64,000 nucleotides of DNA from positions 98,881 to 162,880 of IMG/VR virus record IMGVR_UViG_3300035698_022838; one strand, given 5' to 3'. Under the pieces are notes generated by a model that was not told the DNA's origin, did not search any database, and was given only the letters and a program-made list of their open reading frames with translations. Positions 12,351-52,731 of the stretch are shown piece after piece (positions within the stretch are counted from its first letter, which is position 1; the number at the start of each line of letters is the position of its first letter). The translations under genes were made by a program, and so were the position numbers. The DNA is from a virus.

Positions 12351-13052
12351 ATGAAAAAGAAAATGTCATATTTATTTTTATTCTTAGCAATCTTCGCACT
12401 AACATCATTTCAGAATACATATCGTATTGCTAATAAAGGAGCAAATGTAACACAAAGTATGAAATTCAACGTTATTACTATAGATAAGGATGAGATGGAT
12501 TTTAGTGTATCTGAAAAAAGACCTATTAATGCAGATTTCTACATTAATAGTAATTTCTTTACGACAGGAGCAGATCCTATTGGTTTAGTAGTAATTGATG
12601 GTAAAAGAAAAAGTAAAAGAACCAAAGGTGGCGGATTTTTCTATGTTGCTAATGGTAAAGCAATGGTAAAAGCAAAACAGTGTCCAACAATAACACAATA
12701 TGCATCACAAACTATTCTATGGGGAATTGATAATGGTAAAAGAAACATAGGATTATGTAAGACTACACATGGAAATCAAATAAGATACCGTACGATAATG
12801 GGTGAAAATAAGAAAGGGCAAATAGTAATTATCTCATCAAATAGATTAGGTAGAGTAACAATAGACGAGATAATCACGTTTGCTGAAAAAGTAGGATTAA
12901 CCGAAGCAATCCTACTTGACGGAGGAACTTCAGTCGATTATAAATTCTCTGGTGAAAATAAAACAGTTTATTTCCAATCAGTTCCTGATATAGGGAAAAA
13001 AATGTTTGATATTATAACACCAACAACATATATTTGTGGAAATTTTAATTAA
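12351..13052 (+). CDS. Secreted phosphodiester glycosidase (NAGPA)-family protein
   Basis: Signal peptide; INSNFF, GLVVIDG, RYRTIMG and AILLDGGTS motifs. Confidence 0.7.
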   Translation: MKKKMSYLFLFLAIFALTSFQNTYRIANKGANVTQSMKFNVITIDKDEMDFSVSEKRPINADFYINSNFFTTGADPIGLVVIDGKRKSKRTKGGGFFYVANGKAMVKAKQCPTITQYASQTILWGIDNGKRNIGLCKTTHGNQIRYRTIMGENKKGQIVIISSNRLGRVTIDEIITFAEKVGLTEAILLDGGTSVDYKFSGENKTVYFQSVPDIGKKMFDIITPTTYICGNFN

Positions 13053-14917
13053 GTAATACATCTAAAAGACTTAATACGCTCAACAACTTCTTTAACATAA
13101 TTATGTGTTCTTATATCAACTTTTGGTTTGTACCACACATCCTCGCTTTTACCATAATTAGGTAAATAATTTTCAACATGTCTATCTGAAACTGTTTTAC
13201 CATTTTTAAGCGTTTTTCCCTCGAGCGAACATGAAGCTTTTATATCAGGATCTGAGGTTTCGCAATATTTCCTGATTTTTGTCATACCGCAATTATATGA
13301 GCCAATTGCAATATCCAATGCTGCATTACCAGTACCATATTTAAAATTTGATGATGGTTTATGCTCAGAATATCCAGTCTCAACAGCTTTCTTATATGCT
13401 TTCTCTATATACATATATGCAGCTATTAGTGCACCTTTTAAGGTAAGTATATTTTCTTTTACCCCGAGTTCATCTTTTGTAGTCATTTTCATTTGGGCAG
13501 GACCTATTGAAGTACCATAGCCTACTACAGAAGCAAGTATTTCTGGAACATATATTGACCAATATCTTTTTCCTTTTTCAAAGCTACTTTCTCTTCCTAT
13601 AATACCTAATGCAACTTTTAAGGTATCTTTATCATAACCTTGTTCAATTAGATCATCAGCAATATATCCAAATTCTTTATCTGGTAAACATTTATACCTT
13701 CTTTCTAATTCTTTATCATTAAGTTTTTCTAAATCTACACTTTTAATATTTAAAGCTACGTCTAAATCTACATCTAGTTTTTTACTAAAAGCTTTTAAAT
13801 CACTATCGGTTAAACCTAAATCTACTCTTTCAGCCTCGTTCAAAAAAAAATCCTCTGATTCATTCAATAATGGAACTGCTTTAGGTTTTCTTTTAGGTCT
13901 CCTAACCCAAGCTATTTTAGAATGCCCATGGATTTTATTAGCAGGATCAGAATATATCCTGCCATATACATTATGTAAAATCAACGGTACACCATCTTTA
14001 ATTGCACCAACAATACCAACATGAGTATTCATACCAAATGCATCACCGTTAGTAAGTGTTTTACCAGGGGTAACCTTACCGTCTTTATTGGTAATAAAAT
14101 ATGGTTTACTTCTAAACCCTTTGTTTTCTCCGCCCCTATAAAGTGCTACCTCGTGATAGTTTGAATCTGGATAAAATAAACCAACAACATCACCTAATTG
14201 TAATTTTACATTAGGTTTATCTGGGATTAGTTTATCTATTATTTTCTTAGCCTTTTCTACGTATTTTCCTTTATAGACACCACCGCCATTTCTATGTATA
14301 GCTCCCCACATAGCAGTAATTCTGTTTATCTCATTTTCATCAAGATCAGTAAATGCACTATAAATTCTCTTACCTAATTTTTCATTAGCGTGTGCCAGCC
14401 ATGCATCACCAACACCATCAATATCATCACTGAAAAGGTTAACGAATGAAGCACAACCTATATCTTTATTTATTTTAAATATCAATACTGAATCCTTTGG
14501 ACTTATTTTATCTGCGTGCATTTTTTCTAAATATTCAGGATTAGTATCTTTATTAACTAAAACCGTAGTTGGTATTTCATTAGGACCTATAGGATATGGA
14601 TCATTAGTGAATGGATCACTTGCCATAGCAGCTTCATGATCATAGCTAGACTTCTTAGAACCTATTTTAACTCCTATCTTAGCAGCTTTTGGATCTAATT
14701 GTGCAGGTGCTCCTTTAGGAAAATATTTCTTATTAAGTTTGGCTACCGCAGATTTGATCTTTGTGATATCTCTCCAAGATCCCTTTGAGGTCTTCCTTTT
14801 AGTTAACCATTTACCATTATCAAATTTATAATCCCAGACGGTATCAAAATCCTGATATACTTTTGCTTCTGATACATTTGAATTTGAAAAATCTTTGAAA
14901 TTTATAGCTTTATCCAT
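13049..14917 (-). CDS. Two-domain cell-wall hydrolase: CHAP/NlpC-like Cys-His peptidase plus lytic transglycosylase-like domain
   Basis: GCASFV...GDAW...GDVV...THVGIV; IIGRESSF...GPAQM...SYNCG. Confidence 0.6.
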   Translation of the reverse strand: MDKAINFKDFSNSNVSEAKVYQDFDTVWDYKFDNGKWLTKRKTSKGSWRDITKIKSAVAKLNKKYFPKGAPAQLDPKAAKIGVKIGSKKSSYDHEAAMASDPFTNDPYPIGPNEIPTTVLVNKDTNPEYLEKMHADKISPKDSVLIFKINKDIGCASFVNLFSDDIDGVGDAWLAHANEKLGKRIYSAFTDLDENEINRITAMWGAIHRNGGGVYKGKYVEKAKKIIDKLIPDKPNVKLQLGDVVGLFYPDSNYHEVALYRGGENKGFRSKPYFITNKDGKVTPGKTLTNGDAFGMNTHVGIVGAIKDGVPLILHNVYGRIYSDPANKIHGHSKIAWVRRPKRKPKAVPLLNESEDFFLNEAERVDLGLTDSDLKAFSKKLDVDLDVALNIKSVDLEKLNDKELERRYKCLPDKEFGYIADDLIEQGYDKDTLKVALGIIGRESSFEKGKRYWSIYVPEILASVVGYGTSIGPAQMKMTTKDELGVKENILTLKGALIAAYMYIEKAYKKAVETGYSEHKPSSNFKYGTGNAALDIAIGSYNCGMTKIRKYCETSDPDIKASCSLEGKTLKNGKTVSDRHVENYLPNYGKSEDVWYKPKVDIRTHNYVKEVVERIKSFRCIT

Positions 14918-14949
14918 CTTACTAAATTATTTTATAAACTATATATCAC

Positions 14950-31977: not shown

Positions 31978-33591
31978 TTAAAGAGTAAATCCACCTCCAC
32001 CATCTGCAGGGGCATCGCTTTTTCCTTCCCCTTCTTCACCTCCGCCTTCTTTAGCAGCTTGTTTCTCTTCGAGTTTCTTATATTGTTCGTTCTTTTGATA
32101 TTCGTCTCTTGTCATACCTAAGAATCTTTTAATAAGGAATTCTTTATCAAAATAAGGTACTTCTTCCTCTCCCACTTTTTGTCTTAATTCACCTAAAGAA
32201 TTTATAAACTCGCTTTTCTTATTATAATTTCTTAGCTTAATAAGTCTTTCGAATTCATTTTCTCTTACGTAATTTAAACCAAGATTAGTTTTAAATGATC
32301 TATCTTTGGCTAATTCTGGATAATCAAGACACATTTGTATATAAAGTGGTTTGATTAATAATTCTTGGAATATGGAGCGAAGTCTACTCAAGAATTTCTC
32401 ATATCTAATCTCGTCTCTTTCTAATTGGTCTATAGAGATCTGATAGTTAGCTGGAGTTCCACCTTTGAATGCAAATCTAGCATAAGGTAATTTAGAATCC
32501 ATTTTTAGTTTATTAAAGAAGTAAAGGACATTTTCCATAACATTGAAATCTGGACCATTAGGATCAAGAGTTTCAATCTGGGGTGATTGTCCATCTTTTT
32601 CAGGAAAAAGGTAGTTTTTATAAAATTGTACCTTAGGTCTTCCATTAACAGTTAATTCACCAGATGTATCATTCAATTCAATATCTTCCTTGTATATTGA
32701 CATTAATTGTCCTAATGTCTGCATACCTTTTTGTGCTGATTGGCTACCTATAGGAATTATAAACTTTAATCTATATGATGCATTCATAACATTCCAGATT
32801 ACCCTGGTGTTTTCCATTATTCGTAGAATGTTATAAGATCTAATTAATCTTTCAATGTAACTTACTCTAGAAACTGTATTACCTTTAGCATAGGACAGGT
32901 AAATTACTTGCTCATCCTTAAGTTTACGAGTCATTTTTACATCATCCGGATACTGAACCCATATTTGAGAATATTCTCCATTTGGTTGTAATTCTGTTGA
33001 TGGTTGTAATGATGTTGCATCTAATTCCTTAAACCCGACCACTTTTTTACCACTTGTATCATATACAATCTCAAATGCTAAGAACCCATCGATAAGAAAC
33101 TGTCTAAAATATTGCCAACCTAAAACACCTTGTTGGAATCCAAATAGCATATAAATATATTTGAATGTATCCTGGACTTTCTCTAATATTTCTGGTTTTA
33201 AATCAGTATCAGAAAGCGAAGGTCTACCGTAAACATTCTTTGTATCATAATTTATGCTATCATCAGCAAGCGTATCTAATATAAAATCAATTTCACCATT
33301 CAACGAAAACTTTCTCAGAAAATCTCTTTTTCCTAAATAGTCCTTGTCAAAATATGCTATATACTTTCTTATCTTGGTATCTTGGTAGCCCAATGTCCAG
33401 AAAAACGCATCTTTATTTGCTGTAGTACTTCCTTGCTCCCCTACGTAACTTGCCTCTGTTGCACCAATAGCTTGGGAGTTTCTGATGACCATGTCATCAT
33501 ACTTCATGCCAAATCTACCAATTTTATTAAGGTTCCTATAAAGTGTACCAAGGAACGATTTTTCTGCTATATTATCTAAAAATCCAGCCAT
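31978..33591 (-). CDS. gp20: Portal protein, copy 2 (T4 gp20-like)
   Basis: FRQFLIDG, SYIERLIRSYNILRIME, RDEIRYEKFLSRLR. Confidence 0.9.
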   Translation of the reverse strand: MAGFLDNIAEKSFLGTLYRNLNKIGRFGMKYDDMVIRNSQAIGATEASYVGEQGSTTANKDAFFWTLGYQDTKIRKYIAYFDKDYLGKRDFLRKFSLNGEIDFILDTLADDSINYDTKNVYGRPSLSDTDLKPEILEKVQDTFKYIYMLFGFQQGVLGWQYFRQFLIDGFLAFEIVYDTSGKKVVGFKELDATSLQPSTELQPNGEYSQIWVQYPDDVKMTRKLKDEQVIYLSYAKGNTVSRVSYIERLIRSYNILRIMENTRVIWNVMNASYRLKFIIPIGSQSAQKGMQTLGQLMSIYKEDIELNDTSGELTVNGRPKVQFYKNYLFPEKDGQSPQIETLDPNGPDFNVMENVLYFFNKLKMDSKLPYARFAFKGGTPANYQISIDQLERDEIRYEKFLSRLRSIFQELLIKPLYIQMCLDYPELAKDRSFKTNLGLNYVRENEFERLIKLRNYNKKSEFINSLGELRQKVGEEEVPYFDKEFLIKRFLGMTRDEYQKNEQYKKLEEKQAAKEGGGEEGEGKSDAPADGGGGFTL

Positions 33592-33604
33592 TTATTTATT
33601 TATT

Positions 33605-35185
33605 TTATTCCTTAGTTTCAGGCTCTTCGGAATCCTTATCCTTTTTACCTTCTTTCTTTTTCTTTTTCTTTTTATCTTCTATGGCTTTTTTATTCGCTCT
33701 GATATCCTCGTCGCTTAAACCTAAAAACGATTCAACTAAGAATGCTAAAGAGAAAAATGGTTTTTCTTCCTCTTCAGTTAATGCATATAAACCATCTATA
33801 GCATCTTTCTTAGCTTGCATGGTTTCTATTTCTTGATTTGCTCTAAACGCATTATCTGATATAAAAGTTAAACCAAGTTGACTTTTAAACATGTGATCTT
33901 TTTGTAATTCCGGAAAATCTTTACACATTTGAAGCCATAATGGCTTTATAATAAGATCTTGAAATCCGATTCTAAGTCTATTTACAAACTTACCAAATCT
34001 AATTTCTTCTTTATCTAAACCTTCTGCACCATCGCTATATTGGCCAATTGAGCCTCCATCAGGTCCTTGGAATCTTGAAGTTGGAACTTTTGATTCTTGT
34101 ACTAATTTATCAAAGAAATATGCAAGGGGTGCAGGATCATTAAGATTTGGTCCTGTACTATTCAATGGTTCTATTGTTGGAGTTCCATTTACACCAGATG
34201 GCATTAGATAATTTTTGAAGAATTGTACCTTAGGTCTACCATCAATACTTAATTCGCCACTATCATCATTAAATCTAATATCTTCTTTATAAATACTCAT
34301 TAATTCTCCAAGAGTTTGCATTGCTTTCTGTGGAGATCTAGATCCAATAGGAACAGTCATTTTCATTCTAAATGATGCGTTCATAACAGACCAAATAACT
34401 CTAGTATATTCAATTATTCGTAAAACATTATATGGTCTAATAAGTCTTTCTACATAACTAGCTCTAGTAACACTGTTACCTTTAGCATACGAAAGATATA
34501 TTACCTGTGAATCGTATAACATTCTTCTTTTTTCAAGATCTTTAGGATATTGATACCAAACATTTAACCAAGTACCGTCTGGCTGTTTCTCGACAGATGG
34601 CATAAGATGTATTGAATCAAGTTCTTTAAATCCAATTATATTTTTACCATCATCATCATAAACTATTTCAAATGCTAGAAAGCCATCTGTTAATAATTGT
34701 CTAAAATATTGCCAACCAGTAATATCATCAGAAAAACCAAGCATATCATAGATTTTCTTATAATTACTATTAAGTCTCTCTATTACTTTTTCTTTTAGAT
34801 TAGTTAAATTAGGAAATGATGGGTATGCAAAGAAATTATTGCTATCATACACAATACTCTCATCACAAATAGTATCTACGATATATTCAACCTCTGGGTT
34901 TAATACAAACTTTCTGAGATAGTCTCTTTTACCTTCATAATCCTTATCGAAATATCCTATATATTGTTTAGTTGAAACGTCCTGCTTACCTAGGGTATAA
35001 AGCATTGTTTCATCCTCTATGGTACCTTTCTTCATGAATTCTGCTTCGGTTTGTCCGATAGCTTGTGAATTCTTAATTACCATATCTCCATATCGCATGC
35101 CAAAACTACTTAAAGATTTTACTGAATCTCTAATCTTTTGGAAAATAGGATTGGTGTTTTCTGTGTTTTCTGTAAATCCTGCCAT
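33605..35185 (-). CDS. gp20: Portal protein, copy 1 (T4 gp20-like)
   Basis: FRQLLTDG, SYVERLIRPYNVLRIIE, KEEIRFGKFVNRLR. Confidence 0.9.
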   Translation of the reverse strand: MAGFTENTENTNPIFQKIRDSVKSLSSFGMRYGDMVIKNSQAIGQTEAEFMKKGTIEDETMLYTLGKQDVSTKQYIGYFDKDYEGKRDYLRKFVLNPEVEYIVDTICDESIVYDSNNFFAYPSFPNLTNLKEKVIERLNSNYKKIYDMLGFSDDITGWQYFRQLLTDGFLAFEIVYDDDGKNIIGFKELDSIHLMPSVEKQPDGTWLNVWYQYPKDLEKRRMLYDSQVIYLSYAKGNSVTRASYVERLIRPYNVLRIIEYTRVIWSVMNASFRMKMTVPIGSRSPQKAMQTLGELMSIYKEDIRFNDDSGELSIDGRPKVQFFKNYLMPSGVNGTPTIEPLNSTGPNLNDPAPLAYFFDKLVQESKVPTSRFQGPDGGSIGQYSDGAEGLDKEEIRFGKFVNRLRIGFQDLIIKPLWLQMCKDFPELQKDHMFKSQLGLTFISDNAFRANQEIETMQAKKDAIDGLYALTEEEEKPFFSLAFLVESFLGLSDEDIRANKKAIEDKKKKKKKEGKKDKDSEEPETKE

Positions 35186-35221: not shown

Positions 35222-35827
35222 TTAAGCTTTTAATTTCGATCTGTAGTTAGTATATATCATGTTGAGCGAAATTCCTTGTATAACAGCATCTCCGAGATAT
35301 GGTAATTTACACCAATCCAGATAATCTACAATCTTTATATCTTTGAAATATTCTCTACGAAACCCAGTTATTGCTTTCTTATAACCCGTATCCTTGAATA
35401 AAGTAGATAATCGATCACTATTTAAAATAATTGGTATTTGCTCGCCATTGATTATAGTATCATTAGCTGAAATGATATCAAAAAATTGATTATAAAATTT
35501 TAAAAGAATCTTACCTCTATCATCAGGTGGGATTACATTTAGATCTATTCCTTTAATAATCACATCATTACCTATTTTCTTTCTTGATAAAAATAAAAAC
35601 GTTGGATATCTGTTTATATATTTTACAGTAGGAGATAGTGGTGTTTTTGTAAGATATTCTCCGACGTATATCTTACCAGGTATAAACGAATTAGTAAAAG
35701 TTTCTTTACCCCCCTTTCCATCTATACCGTATTTTTCGTTGTAATATAAATCAGTTTGCTTAGATAGTACCGAAATCGATGGTGCTTTCTCTTTATATTT
35801 TTTTATTTGTTCTATAAATTGTATCAT
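35222..35827 (-). CDS. DNA end protector-like protein (T4 gp2)
   Basis: PGKIY..Y..K, RYP, GIDLNVIPP..R; next to gp4. Confidence 0.6.
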   Translation of the reverse strand: MIQFIEQIKKYKEKAPSISVLSKQTDLYYNEKYGIDGKGGKETFTNSFIPGKIYVGEYLTKTPLSPTVKYINRYPTFLFLSRKKIGNDVIIKGIDLNVIPPDDRGKILLKFYNQFFDIISANDTIINGEQIPIILNSDRLSTLFKDTGYKKAITGFRREYFKDIKIVDYLDWCKLPYLGDAVIQGISLNMIYTNYRSKLKA

Positions 35828-36315: not shown

Positions 36316-36675
36316 TTAAGCGTTGTAACTATTATCTTTTCCTGTGATATAGGAAAATGGAATTGTTTTTGGTGCTTTAGGTGGATGTATTTTTTTCCAT
36401 CCCTTTGCAAAGCCATTTTTTGCAATTTGTGTATAGTATGCAAATGGGTTATTAGATTTCTCTGGGTTAAATCGATTCCAGTATTTACATAAATCTTCCA
36501 TAGCAAAAGCCATACAATCTTTTTTATCTTCTGGATCTCTATATGCCATCTTCTTAGAAATTCCTGCTATCATCAATTCAAACATATCAATAGTTGGTCT
36601 AGTTAATTTACCTTTTTCCTTTGATTCTATAATGGCAGCTAGAAGATCAGCATTTTTTACATATACTTTAGCCAT
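36316..36675 (-). CDS. gp55: Late transcription sigma factor (T4 gp55-like)
   Basis: YVKNADL, FNPEKSNNPFAYYTQI. Confidence 0.85.
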   Translation of the reverse strand: MAKVYVKNADLLAAIIESKEKGKLTRPTIDMFELMIAGISKKMAYRDPEDKKDCMAFAMEDLCKYWNRFNPEKSNNPFAYYTQIAKNGFAKGWKKIHPPKAPKTIPFSYITGKDNSYNA

Positions 36676-36698
36676 AATTTATTAATTTTTGTTCTATA

Positions 36699-36727
36699 CT
36701 TTTATCCTTAACCTCGAGGTTAGTTTC
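36699..36727 (-). promoter_or_regulatory. Middle-class promoter GAAAC-N18-TAAAAG upstream of gp55 (representative)
   Basis: The same bipartite motif precedes 8 non-structural transcription units. Confidence 0.7.
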
Positions 36728-36730
36728 GGG

Positions 36731-36916
36731 CTACTTATCCTCTTCTTGTTCAGATCCGTCTTCAGCAGAAATGAGCGCACTACCCTTGGATTTCTTCTTT
36801 CCATCAGGAGCTACACTCATTCTACCCTCAAAATCATCAATAAATGGCTCTGGGTTTTTGTTTTGGTCTTTGCTCGATGGAGCGATAGACCAAACTTTAC
36901 TAATTATTTTTTTTAG
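36731..36916 (-). CDS. 61-aa -1-frame extension of the 933-aa protein, with no start codon at its 5' end
   Basis: Open after A_AAA_AAC; contains SIAP/SVAP like the parent's LAxAP repeats; ends in TAG just before the gp55 promoter. Confidence 0.7.
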   Translation of the reverse strand, partial: LKKIISKVWSIAPSSKDQNKNPEPFIDDFEGRMSVAPDGKKKSKGSALISAEDGSEQEEDK

Positions 36917-39714
36917 TTTTTTTTTGACTCAATGCTTTCAGTAACTGCGTCTTCACCTTCTTTAATACCATAGCCCATTTCTTTATTAACTTTTATGTTA
37001 ACATCGCCATCTGCACCTTTACTAGGAGCTTCTGCTAATTTCTGGTCTATTTTCATAACGTCAGGATTTTTAGCTTTACCTTTTACAGTTTTAGCATCAT
37101 ATTTAATTTCCTTACTTCCACCTGGGGCTTTAGCTAATTTCTGGTCAGTTTTTTCAAGATCAGATTCGCTAGTATTGTAACCCATTTCGTTATCAACTTT
37201 ATGAGTTAATGCTTTACCTTTCTCATCACCCGGTGCTGAAGCAAGCTCCTGATCAATCTTTATGATGTCAGGGTTATTAGATTTACCTTTTACAGTTTTG
37301 TTAGGATATTTGATTTCCTTACTTCCACCTGGGGCTTTAGCTAATTTCTGGTCAGTTTTTTCAAGATCCGATTCAGACATATCAGTTTTACCTTCCTCTG
37401 GTGCTACTGCTAAATTATCAGCTTTTTCTGCATTCTCTGCATTCTCTGCTTCTTCACTAACATTATAACCGATTTTACCACCAATGTCAGTTTTAACTTT
37501 TACTTCGAATTTAATATCTTTATTCTTGTCATCTGGAGTATCTTCAAGGTTTGCATCTTTAAGGTTTACTACATCTTTCTTACCATTCTTATCTTGTTCT
37601 TTAGTCTTAGGTGCAGCAGTTGTGCTTTTCTTTAAAGTAGCTGCTGGTTTTGGATCTGACGAAGTTGATTTCTTTTTAGCAGGAGCTTTTGCTAATTGCT
37701 GTTCTCCTTCTTTAACTACTTCTTCACCATCTTCTTCAGCATCTTCTTCAGCAGGCATTTCAACATTTACTTCTTCATCAGAAGGTGTTTCTGTTGGATC
37801 TTCAGCTAAAGCATCTTCAATATCAATAATATCTTCTGTTCTAAAATCACCAGTTCTTCCGTTATCCATCAATACTGTATAGTTACCAGTTGTACTATCA
37901 ACTGAAATTACTTTACCTGTATTTCCTGATTCCTTTACTTTAACATAAGCACCAATAGTAAATTTATCATCTTCGTTTATATCGATTTTTTCAACTTGAC
38001 CACTATCGATTTTTTCAATTTCTTCATTGATTGCTTTCCATTTATTTCTAAGAGTTCTTAATTCAGTCTCTAATAAACTTTGTGTTCTTTCAATTTCTTT
38101 TGAATTTGAATATAATGGATTGGTTTCGGTAAGTGTTTTAAGCTTGTTTATTTCACCTTCAACGATTGCAATATTTTCCATGATCTGTGATCTATCATTA
38201 AGCATAATAGACTTAATTTTAGATTCACCTTCTAAGAATTGCGTTAAACCTTCAGAAATATCATACTTAAGGAAGTCCTTAACCATATTTGTTGCTTGTG
38301 TCCCGTTTACATCGAATATTGAATTTTCATTCATAGATTCGTTGATCCTGTTCAAGTAAATTTTACCTGCCCATTTAATAAGGTTTATAGATGCACCTTC
38401 ATATAAGTTAGATATAAGTCTTTTTGCAAAGTCTAATTCAACAACTTTGTCATAATTCTCATATAATCTAATTACGTCAGCAACTGCTTGTGATTCATTT
38501 ACACCAAAGCTTCCTGAAATTTCTAATGCAATTTGACTTGCCAATTTGTTTCTATCTGCGGTTTGCAACTGTAAGTCTTTACTATAAAGATTTACTGTTT
38601 CATTTTCTTCTATAATTCTAAATGACTTCGATCCAACATAAATACTTAGCCCTTGCTCGTTAACTTTAACTGCTGGAGAATAGAATGAAACCAATAAAGC
38701 TCTAAATTCTTCTGGTAACTCATCATATTCATTTTTCTTCAATCTTTTAATTGTTTCTTCGCTACCCTCAAAGATATTGTTTCCTATAGTGAACACAGTT
38801 TTACCACCGCCAACTAATACTGGTGAGAATATTCTTTTCACCTGTGAATTACCAACATTAACTGGAATATTTAGTTTATCACTGTCGTTTTCCATCAATG
38901 CTAATGTATTAACAAGATTTCTAACTACAGGATTGAATGACCAACGTGTAATTTCTTTATTAAGTAAGGAAACTGATTTGTTCTCTGCAACCAACCATTT
39001 ATTCAGAGATTCTGTTACCGGAGAATAAAAATCTGCTCCTGCATTTTGCTCAATAGCATAGATCGCTTTTGAAACTTCAATTTCAGGTTTTAAAGTATTA
39101 ATCTTTTCTGAAATTTCTTTATGTGTAGCTTTGATTCCATCATCCCAAGTAAAATTAGAAAATTCGGTAACAAATGCTTCTGCAACTAAATACTCTGGTA
39201 AATTAGTAGTCTTGATTAAATGTACGTATTTTTCACAAAGTACTTTAATATTAGGATGCTCGTAAATACCCTTACTTTGTAAGCTTACTATAGCCTCATA
39301 TACACCAAGATCATTCACACCTTGTGATGTAACAAATGCTTTTGCAGCACCATCATCAACATTGGCTAAACTTTCCGATATATTTTCGGTTTCTTTTTTA
39401 GGCTCATCTTTTTGACCTTCGATATAAGATCCTGACGTCTTTTGAGCACGTGAGTCAATACCTCCCCAAGATTCCATAAGTCTTTGTGCAGCAGCTTTAG
39501 ATCTATCTAGCTCCTCATTTCTTATTGTTTCTAACGGGTTCGTTTCTTTAGGTGTTGGTTCCATATTCTCTATATTTTTTACAGACTCGAGTAATTCTGT
39601 TTCGTTAATTGGTTTACCACTCTTGATCTCTTGTATGTGAGATTCACAGATAGTTTTTACATCTGGTGATTTGGTAGTGTCCCTTAATATTTCTAATTGG
39701 TTGAGCAAATTCAT
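36913..39714 (-). CDS. Large acidic prohead-core-like protein
   Basis: Many INE/LLE/ISE/VKE sites, coiled coil, KOW-like segment, LAxAP repeats; late motif at 39739-39746. Confidence 0.6.
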   Translation of the reverse strand: MNLLNQLEILRDTTKSPDVKTICESHIQEIKSGKPINETELLESVKNIENMEPTPKETNPLETIRNEELDRSKAAAQRLMESWGGIDSRAQKTSGSYIEGQKDEPKKETENISESLANVDDGAAKAFVTSQGVNDLGVYEAIVSLQSKGIYEHPNIKVLCEKYVHLIKTTNLPEYLVAEAFVTEFSNFTWDDGIKATHKEISEKINTLKPEIEVSKAIYAIEQNAGADFYSPVTESLNKWLVAENKSVSLLNKEITRWSFNPVVRNLVNTLALMENDSDKLNIPVNVGNSQVKRIFSPVLVGGGKTVFTIGNNIFEGSEETIKRLKKNEYDELPEEFRALLVSFYSPAVKVNEQGLSIYVGSKSFRIIEENETVNLYSKDLQLQTADRNKLASQIALEISGSFGVNESQAVADVIRLYENYDKVVELDFAKRLISNLYEGASINLIKWAGKIYLNRINESMNENSIFDVNGTQATNMVKDFLKYDISEGLTQFLEGESKIKSIMLNDRSQIMENIAIVEGEINKLKTLTETNPLYSNSKEIERTQSLLETELRTLRNKWKAINEEIEKIDSGQVEKIDINEDDKFTIGAYVKVKESGNTGKVISVDSTTGNYTVLMDNGRTGDFRTEDIIDIEDALAEDPTETPSDEEVNVEMPAEEDAEEDGEEVVKEGEQQLAKAPAKKKSTSSDPKPAATLKKSTTAAPKTKEQDKNGKKDVVNLKDANLEDTPDDKNKDIKFEVKVKTDIGGKIGYNVSEEAENAENAEKADNLAVAPEEGKTDMSESDLEKTDQKLAKAPGGSKEIKYPNKTVKGKSNNPDIIKIDQELASAPGDEKGKALTHKVDNEMGYNTSESDLEKTDQKLAKAPGGSKEIKYDAKTVKGKAKNPDVMKIDQKLAEAPSKGADGDVNIKVNKEMGYGIKEGEDAVTESIESKKN
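37106..37368. repeat. 207-bp period internal duplication (56-bp exact core at 37106-37161 and 37313-37368)
   Basis: SESDLEKTDQKLAKAPGGSKEIKY occurs twice. Confidence 0.9.
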
Positions 39715-39807
39715 TTTTTACTTAGTTTTTTTACTTATTATATATCTCCACAGAAAGGGAAACTTTTCTATTATATATTCATTTCTTATCTTAAAACTTC
39801 AAGTTTA

Positions 39808-52622: not shown

Positions 52623-52731
52623 TATTATTCAAGAGATATTTTTGCTTACTATATATCCAAACTAGAACATATAATTATGTATGTTACACAGATTGGCTTA
52701 TGTATTTATATATCGTCAGGAATTCAATTAT

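Follow-up and report, generated by a model that had tools for sequence, protein, structure and literature searches.

The stretch of DNA analysed here, called the window throughout, comprises 64,000 nucleotides (nt) of a virus and covers positions 98,881 to 162,880 of the 162,880-bp IMG/VR virus record IMGVR_UViG_3300035698_022838 (CheckV completeness 59%). This report concerns the 3' end of one of its genes, a minus-strand open reading frame (ORF; P0001) that encodes a protein of 933 amino acids (aa), called the parent below, and that terminates in GAG TCA AAA AAA AAC TAA. An initial annotation of the window had pointed to the ORF end TCA AAA AAA AAC TAA and to a -1 frame that stays open for 61 codons up to a TAG; the sequence has this layout, and the peptide quoted at the time was reproduced. 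Comparison with relatives strongly supports the view that the run of nine A's (A9) is a programmed recoding site, from which a short and a C-terminally extended isoform would be made from one gene. The features of the gene end are the following.

36913 to 39714, minus strand: parent ORF, 933 aa
36929 to 36931, minus strand: -1-frame stop TGA, immediately before GTC-A9
36917 to 36925, minus strand: A9 run, the slip site, read in frame 0 as TC[A AAA AAA AA]C
36913 to 36915, minus strand: frame-0 stop TAA, one codon past the A run (TAA or TGA in relatives)
36731 to 36916, minus strand: extension ORF in the -1 frame, 61 sense codons (36734-36916) and a TAG (36731-36733)

The Gene End

The A9 run holds two heptamers in the frame-0 register, A_AAA_AAA and A_AAA_AAC, and the base directly 3' of it is a C at 36916. 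Since the TGA stands directly before GTC-A9, the A run is the sole entry point into the -1 frame. Past the slip this frame reads (GTC AAA AAA AAA) CTA AAA AAA ATA ..., giving the predicted peptide P0122, the one quoted in the initial annotation, and a predicted long isoform of 994 aa, while the parent itself ends in ...ESKKN. Frame 0 contains many stops beyond the TAA. In this phage the first ATG, GTG or TTG of the extension does not come before codon 33. The chance of an open frame of 61 codons was estimated from the window base composition, for this single sequence, as ~0.004. Only four A9 or T9 runs are present in the whole 163-kb record.

Conservation of the Nine-A Run

A protein search with the parent returned 120 homolog clusters, all metagenomic and 37-65% identical to it, which makes 121 proteins with the query. 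From IMG/VR 80 loci were collected, drawn from many different metagenome samples, and 75 of them contain the gene end; the distant relative L086 brings the total to 76. The 75 IMG/VR gene ends represent 43 distinct extension sequences, and all 76 loci represent 44 distinct sequences.

The gene terminus is NNA AAA AAA AA(C/T/G), followed by TAA or TGA, at all 76 related gene ends, and the run is exactly nine A's long at every one of them; no other length was found, and the DNA run length is uniform across assemblies. The lineages that share it include some whose parent proteins have diverged to 37-40% identity. In L086 the gene ends in GTA AAA AAA AAG TAA, again with nine A's and with the same extension. 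Homologs that end in KKN or KKK before the stop and have an open -1 frame, which had been proposed as a check, were thus found at each of the 76 gene ends. Among the 121 proteins the C-terminal residues are KKN in 117 and KKK in 3, and the gene maps of the most distant KKK-ending homologs (P0120 and P0121) show the same uncalled gap of ~258 nt before the gp55-type late sigma gene. One protein, P0105, ends instead in ...DESTI. Its source is a single MEGAHIT contig (L175:3440-3480) in which A9 is intact but one nucleotide is deleted 8 nt upstream of it; the contig reflects either a defective variant or a mistake of assembly.

The codons around the run are constrained more tightly than the residues that they encode. 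The residue before the run differs (Ser, Leu or Val), yet its codon always ends in A (TCA, CTA, TTA or GTA); for the residue in this position A-ending codons make up a median of just 29%, against NNA AAA AAA in 43 of the 43 distinct sequences. Both Lys codons are likewise AAA in all 43, though AAA accounts for ~74% of Lys codons in these genes, where AAA and AAG are mixed elsewhere. Under codon usage, and assuming independent sequences, this synonymous-site conservation corresponds to log10 P = -34. To judge from these counts, the nucleotides of the run are conserved more strictly than the encoded protein would demand.

The Extension as a Coding Sequence

The -1 frame is open for 49-62 codons at all 75 IMG/VR gene ends (one locus is cut by the contig end), and in most loci the +1 frame meets a stop after 1-5 codons. 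Across the 43 distinct sequences the -1 frame alone among the sense frames is open in every case; neither of the other sense frames is open in any of them, the same holds for two antisense frames, and the third antisense frame is open in just 13. The ratio of nonsynonymous to synonymous substitutions (dN/dS, NG86 on a codon alignment) has a median of 0.27 in the extension at a dS of ~1.5, and 99.8% of 529 pairs lie below 1. These values indicate that the extension encodes a conserved peptide under purifying selection. The peptide begins right at the A run (L-K/R/S...) and ends in an acidic C-terminus. Two x-A-P motifs, WSIAP and MSVAPDGK in this phage, are invariant in the 43 distinct aligned extensions, which bears out the earlier claim that the -1 frame contains two further copies of the parent's repeat core.

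The extension lacks a usable start codon of its own. In the relatives no ATG, GTG or TTG occurs in the first 25-30 extension codons, and eight distinct extensions from the far clades are wholly free of them. Upstream, the -1 frame of the relatives has its closest stop only 16-58 nt before the frame-0 stop.

No in-frame fused form was found among the 121 homolog proteins, and a search of longer proteins with the extension gave no match, which is weak evidence. Searches with the site patterns of the near clade in 2.9 million IMG/VR viral contigs and 241 million JGI metagenome records revealed no A10 or A8 version of the gene; the matches were unrelated genes, such as a methyltransferase-like ORF. 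The initial annotation would have been overturned by an A10 version (a homopolymer error in one continuous ORF) or by homologs devoid of the site. Instead the homologs keep both the site and the extension, and the A10 version is absent from the collections searched. Because A9 is invariant, the -1 frame is open, start-less and under purifying selection, and fused, A8 or A10 forms are absent, a sequencing error, a chance ORF and a separate small gene can be excluded as the origin of this arrangement.

Gene callers leave the ~258-nt gap between the frame-0 stop and gp55 empty or call an ORF of 47 aa there on the opposite strand, and this antisense call is judged to be spurious. Public annotations of this phage protein family therefore miss the extension. 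An antisense ORF at 36689..36916 (plus strand) was considered as a real gene and rejected, its frame being open in only 13 of the 43 relatives.

The Parent Protein

AlphaFold2, run with 80 homologs, predicted residues 110-640 of the parent to be folded and residues 640-933 to be disordered. The predicted domains are a helical domain, an alpha/beta domain, a coiled-coil hairpin (488-570) and a Tudor/SH3-like barrel (590-631). The conserved islands of the disordered tail are short, repeated hydrophobic-A-x-A-P motifs and GYN-x-x-E. The extension profile aligns to parent residues 694-733, a 40-residue unit with two motifs at the start of this tail (hhalign E = 3.4e-4, probability 38%). From this alignment the long isoform is predicted to carry a second copy of the tail-start unit (x-A-P ... 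x-A-P-x-G-K) followed by an acidic end.

No family was found for the parent in PHROGs and Pfam, where the only match was to MSSS/SH3 and below threshold. Comparison of its model, whole and as residues 105-480, with the PDB (Foldseek) and by VIA-align gave generic helical-hairpin and Tudor-like matches, the best having Z 6.9-10.2 on helical hairpins, and a search of the ESM Atlas gave nothing informative. Related models in BFVD belong to uncharacterized proteins of the Tenacibaculum phages PTm1 and pT24 and of uncultured phages. By tblastn against phage genomes the sole homolog was a protein of 631 aa, 25% identical, in LR756500.1; it lacks the tail and the A run, and its gene adjoins a gp55-like gene. 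The parent gene itself is placed between genes of unknown function and those for gp55, gp4, gp2 and the portal. The label "core-like" or "head-assembly" that the initial annotation had given to the parent is therefore best read as a guess.

RNA and Transcription Signals around the Site

The initial annotation had noticed a stem-loop ~20 nt downstream of the slip site and had remarked that this is further than a typical stimulator.

36862 to 36894, minus strand: local stem-loop of 8 bp + 4 bp, arms 36887-36894 and 36862-36869, inner GCTC/GAGC

This stem-loop is present and starts 22 nt past the A run; folding of the 110-nt region gave z = -3.4. Its standing as a general stimulator did not hold up. 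RNAalifold placed 0 consensus pairs between -70 and +110 in 35 sequences, and across the relatives the stem shows no covariation, its positions being paired in 65.7% of cells versus 65.9% in shuffles. The stem-loop was accordingly rejected as a slip stimulator, and it is probably incidental to the coding of VWS...KDQN. An upstream GAGGAG, resembling a Shine-Dalgarno (SD) sequence, was also rejected, being present in the near clade only. Neither a conserved hairpin or pseudoknot ~5-9 nt downstream nor a conserved upstream SD-like element was found in the relatives, and in the absence of such flanking signals the run and the adjacent stop are the only conserved ones.

Two sequence elements lie on either side of the gene.

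36710 to 36727, minus strand: GAAACTAACCTCGAGGTT element, 18 nt with a 12-nt palindrome, starting 3 nt past the extension TAG and before gp55
39739 to 39746, minus strand: GATATATA late-promoter-like motif, 25 nt upstream of the parent ATG

The GAAACTAACCTCGAGGTT element occurs once in the window, and the near clades keep it with the palindrome-preserving variants CCCCGGGG and CCTCGGGG. It is probably what had been called the gp55 promoter, although a promoter role could not be shown for it. GATATATA occurs 16 times in the window, always on the minus (coding) strand and in several cases just upstream of a gene start, and other sites include 35251-35258, 14940-14947 and 52650-52657; this distribution fits a T4-like late promoter of the phage. 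The clade L050-L057 has a different next gene, which is preceded by GATATATA.

A promoter and terminator scan found no terminator between the frame-0 stop and the extension. In the far clades (L065-L078 and L086) a GC-rich hairpin with a T-run, an intrinsic terminator, lies directly past the stop of the extension and not past the frame-0 stop, from which it follows that the extension is part of the transcription unit.

Proposed Mechanism of Isoform Production

The initial annotation had proposed that ribosomal or transcriptional slippage on A9 yields two isoforms, and this proposal is strongly supported by the presence of A9 at 76 of 76 gene ends, a start-less open -1 frame with dN/dS of 0.27 and no fused form. 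As to how the frame would be changed, we favour slippage of RNA polymerase that adds one A, to which we assign a probability of roughly 0.58.

Bacterial RNA polymerase slips efficiently on 9 A/T, and its RNA-DNA hybrid measures 9-10 bp (PMC5009743, PMC1088944). Productive slippage on A/T runs is documented for Thermus dnaX, Shigella spa13 and IS elements (PMC5009743, PMC1088944), and in tssM the A run stands just before a stop and both length variants are needed (PMC4256274). The strict length of nine A's in the phage gene, kept at synonymous positions, matches the length of the hybrid, and it is for this reason that transcriptional slippage is favoured. The features of that class were found at the locus: a run of at least ~9 A, conservation at the nucleotide level, and a start-less ORF that opens upon the addition of one base while the other frame is soon closed.

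The following course of events is proposed. The parent gene would be transcribed late, probably from the upstream GATATATA motif, by host RNA polymerase on which we infer the phage gp55-type late sigma to act. On a template of nine T's the whole 9-bp RNA-DNA hybrid would be homopolymeric, so that the nascent RNA could realign by one base and, as the literature on such runs suggests, a fraction of the transcripts would carry A10. An A9 mRNA would give the 933-aa form ending in KKN. An A10 mRNA would be read ...S K K K L K K I... and would give the 994-aa form, and an A8 mRNA would reach a stop within a few codons, so that its product would hardly differ from the short form. Some of the long form may also come from a ribosomal -1 slip on A_AAA_AAA or A_AAA_AAC, and both mechanisms may act together. 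We infer that the long form is most likely a minor variant that offers additional binding valency and whose ratio to the short form is fixed.

Several observations weigh against this reading, and some of them favour its main competitor, in which the long isoform arises mainly by programmed -1 ribosomal frameshifting and RNA-polymerase slippage is minor. At every locus the run is in X_XXY_YYZ register, and it offers the heptamers of classic -1 tandem slippage, A_AAA_AAA and A_AAA_AAC, or A_AAA_AAG in the L086 clade, the latter being the heptamer of Escherichia coli dnaX. The frame-0 stop always lies one codon past the run, and such a "shifty stop" can favour ribosomal slippage. The run length is constant and is never A10 or A11 in another register, a constancy for which pure RNA-polymerase slippage has no need. 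The loci are phylogenetically related, hence the P of 10^-34 overstates their independence, and both A10 transcripts and the long isoform are predictions made from sequence alone. IS1 uses A_AAA_AAC with no established stimulator (PMC4066793), and ribosomes have been reported to slide on iterated AAA codons (PMC4363877). The ribosomal event could take the form of tandem tRNA-Lys slippage on A_AAA_AAA, of slippage on A_AAA_AAC, or of P-site slippage beside a slow-to-decode stop; even taken jointly, these variants strike us as rather unlikely.

What speaks against a mainly ribosomal origin lies in the same stretch of sequence. A conserved structure 5-9 nt downstream and an upstream SD-like element are both missing, with 0 pairs from RNAalifold, so that of the usual -1 cassette the heptamer in register is present and a conserved stimulator is not. 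Seven bases are enough for a heptamer; the invariance nevertheless extends to all nine A's, even to the third position of a preceding codon that otherwise varies, while the base past the run may be C, T or G, and this again is why RNA-polymerase slippage is favoured. Asn codons are poor A-site slippers in bacteria, though the base past the run is free to vary. A mainly ribosomal mechanism thus remains a doubtful, if serious, alternative to slippage by RNA polymerase.

A separate small gene past the stop, expressed from a non-canonical start or by termination-reinitiation, would account for a peptide that is clearly coding and for callers that leave the gap empty or fill it with a spurious antisense ORF. 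It appears very improbable, given that the conserved first half contains no ATG, GTG or TTG and eight distinct sequences have none anywhere, that the conserved peptide starts at the A run and continues the repeat motifs of the parent, and that such a gene would explain neither why A9 is invariant nor why the frame offset is conserved. Finally, an artefact (with A10 as the true length), a recent frameshift or pseudogene, or a phase-variation switch at the DNA level is scarcely credible: homopolymers are indeed error-prone and hypermutable (PMC1088944), and contig L175 carries its deletion 8 nt upstream of the run, but A9 stands in 76 of 76 independent assemblies from many samples and from lineages at 37-40% parent identity, neither an A10 or A8 version of the gene nor a fused protein exists in the viral contigs, metagenome records and protein collection searched, and purifying selection on the extension has persisted after the split.

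Comparison with Known Systems

Among the closest parallels are the tssM1 gene of Citrobacter rodentium and the tssM3 gene of Yersinia pseudotuberculosis (PMC4256274), in which, as in the phage gene, a poly-A run stands directly before the frame-0 stop; a second form is extended at the C-terminus, as is proposed for the phage. In tssM the extra A's are added by RNA polymerase, and both forms and their ratio matter (PMC4256274); like tssM, the phage gene has no encoded fused form. C. rodentium tssM1 has a run of A11 where the phage gene has A9. The two cases also differ in context: tssM belongs to a bacterial secretion system, and its long form is the canonical full-length protein, whereas the gene studied here is a late gene of a phage and would gain no more than a short, disordered repeat unit.

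The tau/gamma site of Thermus thermophilus dnaX (PMC5009743, PMC1088944) has the same nine-A run, with stops near in the unproductive frame or frames, and it yields a fixed ratio of two products from one gene, as is proposed for the phage site. The direction is reversed, however. In Thermus the templated frame gives the long product and slippage the truncated one, whereas at the phage site the templated frame would yield the short product, and the extension would come from slippage.

E. coli dnaX (A_AAA_AAG) and IS1 (A_AAA_AAC) present the same in-register heptamers (PMC4066793), IS1 also having no known stimulator. E. coli dnaX possesses an SD-like element and a downstream hairpin, neither of which is conserved here, and nine A's are required by neither dnaX nor IS1. 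Phage T7 gene 10A/10B and lambda G/GT (PMC5009743) resemble what is proposed for the present case, in that a phage late gene makes a minor isoform, extended at the C-terminus, by a -1 shift near its end. Their shifts, however, are ribosomal, occur on G_GUU_UUC and G_GGA_AAG, and take place in a capsid protein and a tail chaperone, and the parent matches neither family. The setting of a G/GT-type chaperone, a small gene between the tail tube and the tape measure, was not found either, the parent being 933 aa long and having no match to a chaperone family.

We regard the locus as a new and well-supported case within a known kind of recoding site. It is deeply conserved and is annotated by no gene caller, so that pipelines miss a conserved module of 61 residues. 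The 44 natural sequence variants, in which only A9 is constant, offer a clean system for asking if a bare nine-A run suffices for slippage by bacterial RNA polymerase redirected by a phage.

Other Nine-Base Runs of the Record

Three of the four A9 or T9 runs of the record lie in the sense strand of an ORF and have layouts like those of dnaX or tssM: the A9 at 36917-36925, a T9 at 13842-13850 and an A9 at G000:C1:87815-87823. One could speculate that giant T4-like aquatic phages of this clade use nine-base homopolymers across the whole lineage as an expression device, one that sets fixed isoform ratios in several genes through slippage of gp55-directed host RNA polymerase; we hold this generalization to be tentative and, on balance, improbable.

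The T9 run lies in the middle of a 622-aa minus-strand ORF at 13049..14917 (nt 1068-1076 of 1869), where both other frames stop within 0-4 codons. No PHROG family was found for this ORF. By analogy with the layout of Thermus dnaX, slippage there could give a truncated isoform of ~360 aa. The third run (L081:1501-1509, minus strand, outside the window) lies mid-way in a frame of 475 codons, with 221 codons before it and 250 after. The other two frames stop there after 3-7 codons, and the product has only a marginal match, to a PHROG of unknown function.

Neighbouring Genes

Downstream of the parent lies the gp55-type late sigma gene (36316..36675, phrog_234), and further downstream come a gp4 head-closure gene and two tandem portal genes. 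For an ORF downstream of the parent that the initial annotation had labelled gp2-like, our searches found no family match. The tandem portal ORFs (31978-35185) encode 537 aa and 526 aa and both match phrog_213 (E = 3e-55 and 1e-56), in agreement with a separate earlier remark on two portal genes. The phage family that hosts the site is large and uncultured, and its portals are closest to those of Prevotella Lak phages and other uncultured huge phages, a kinship that hints at a Bacteroidota host.

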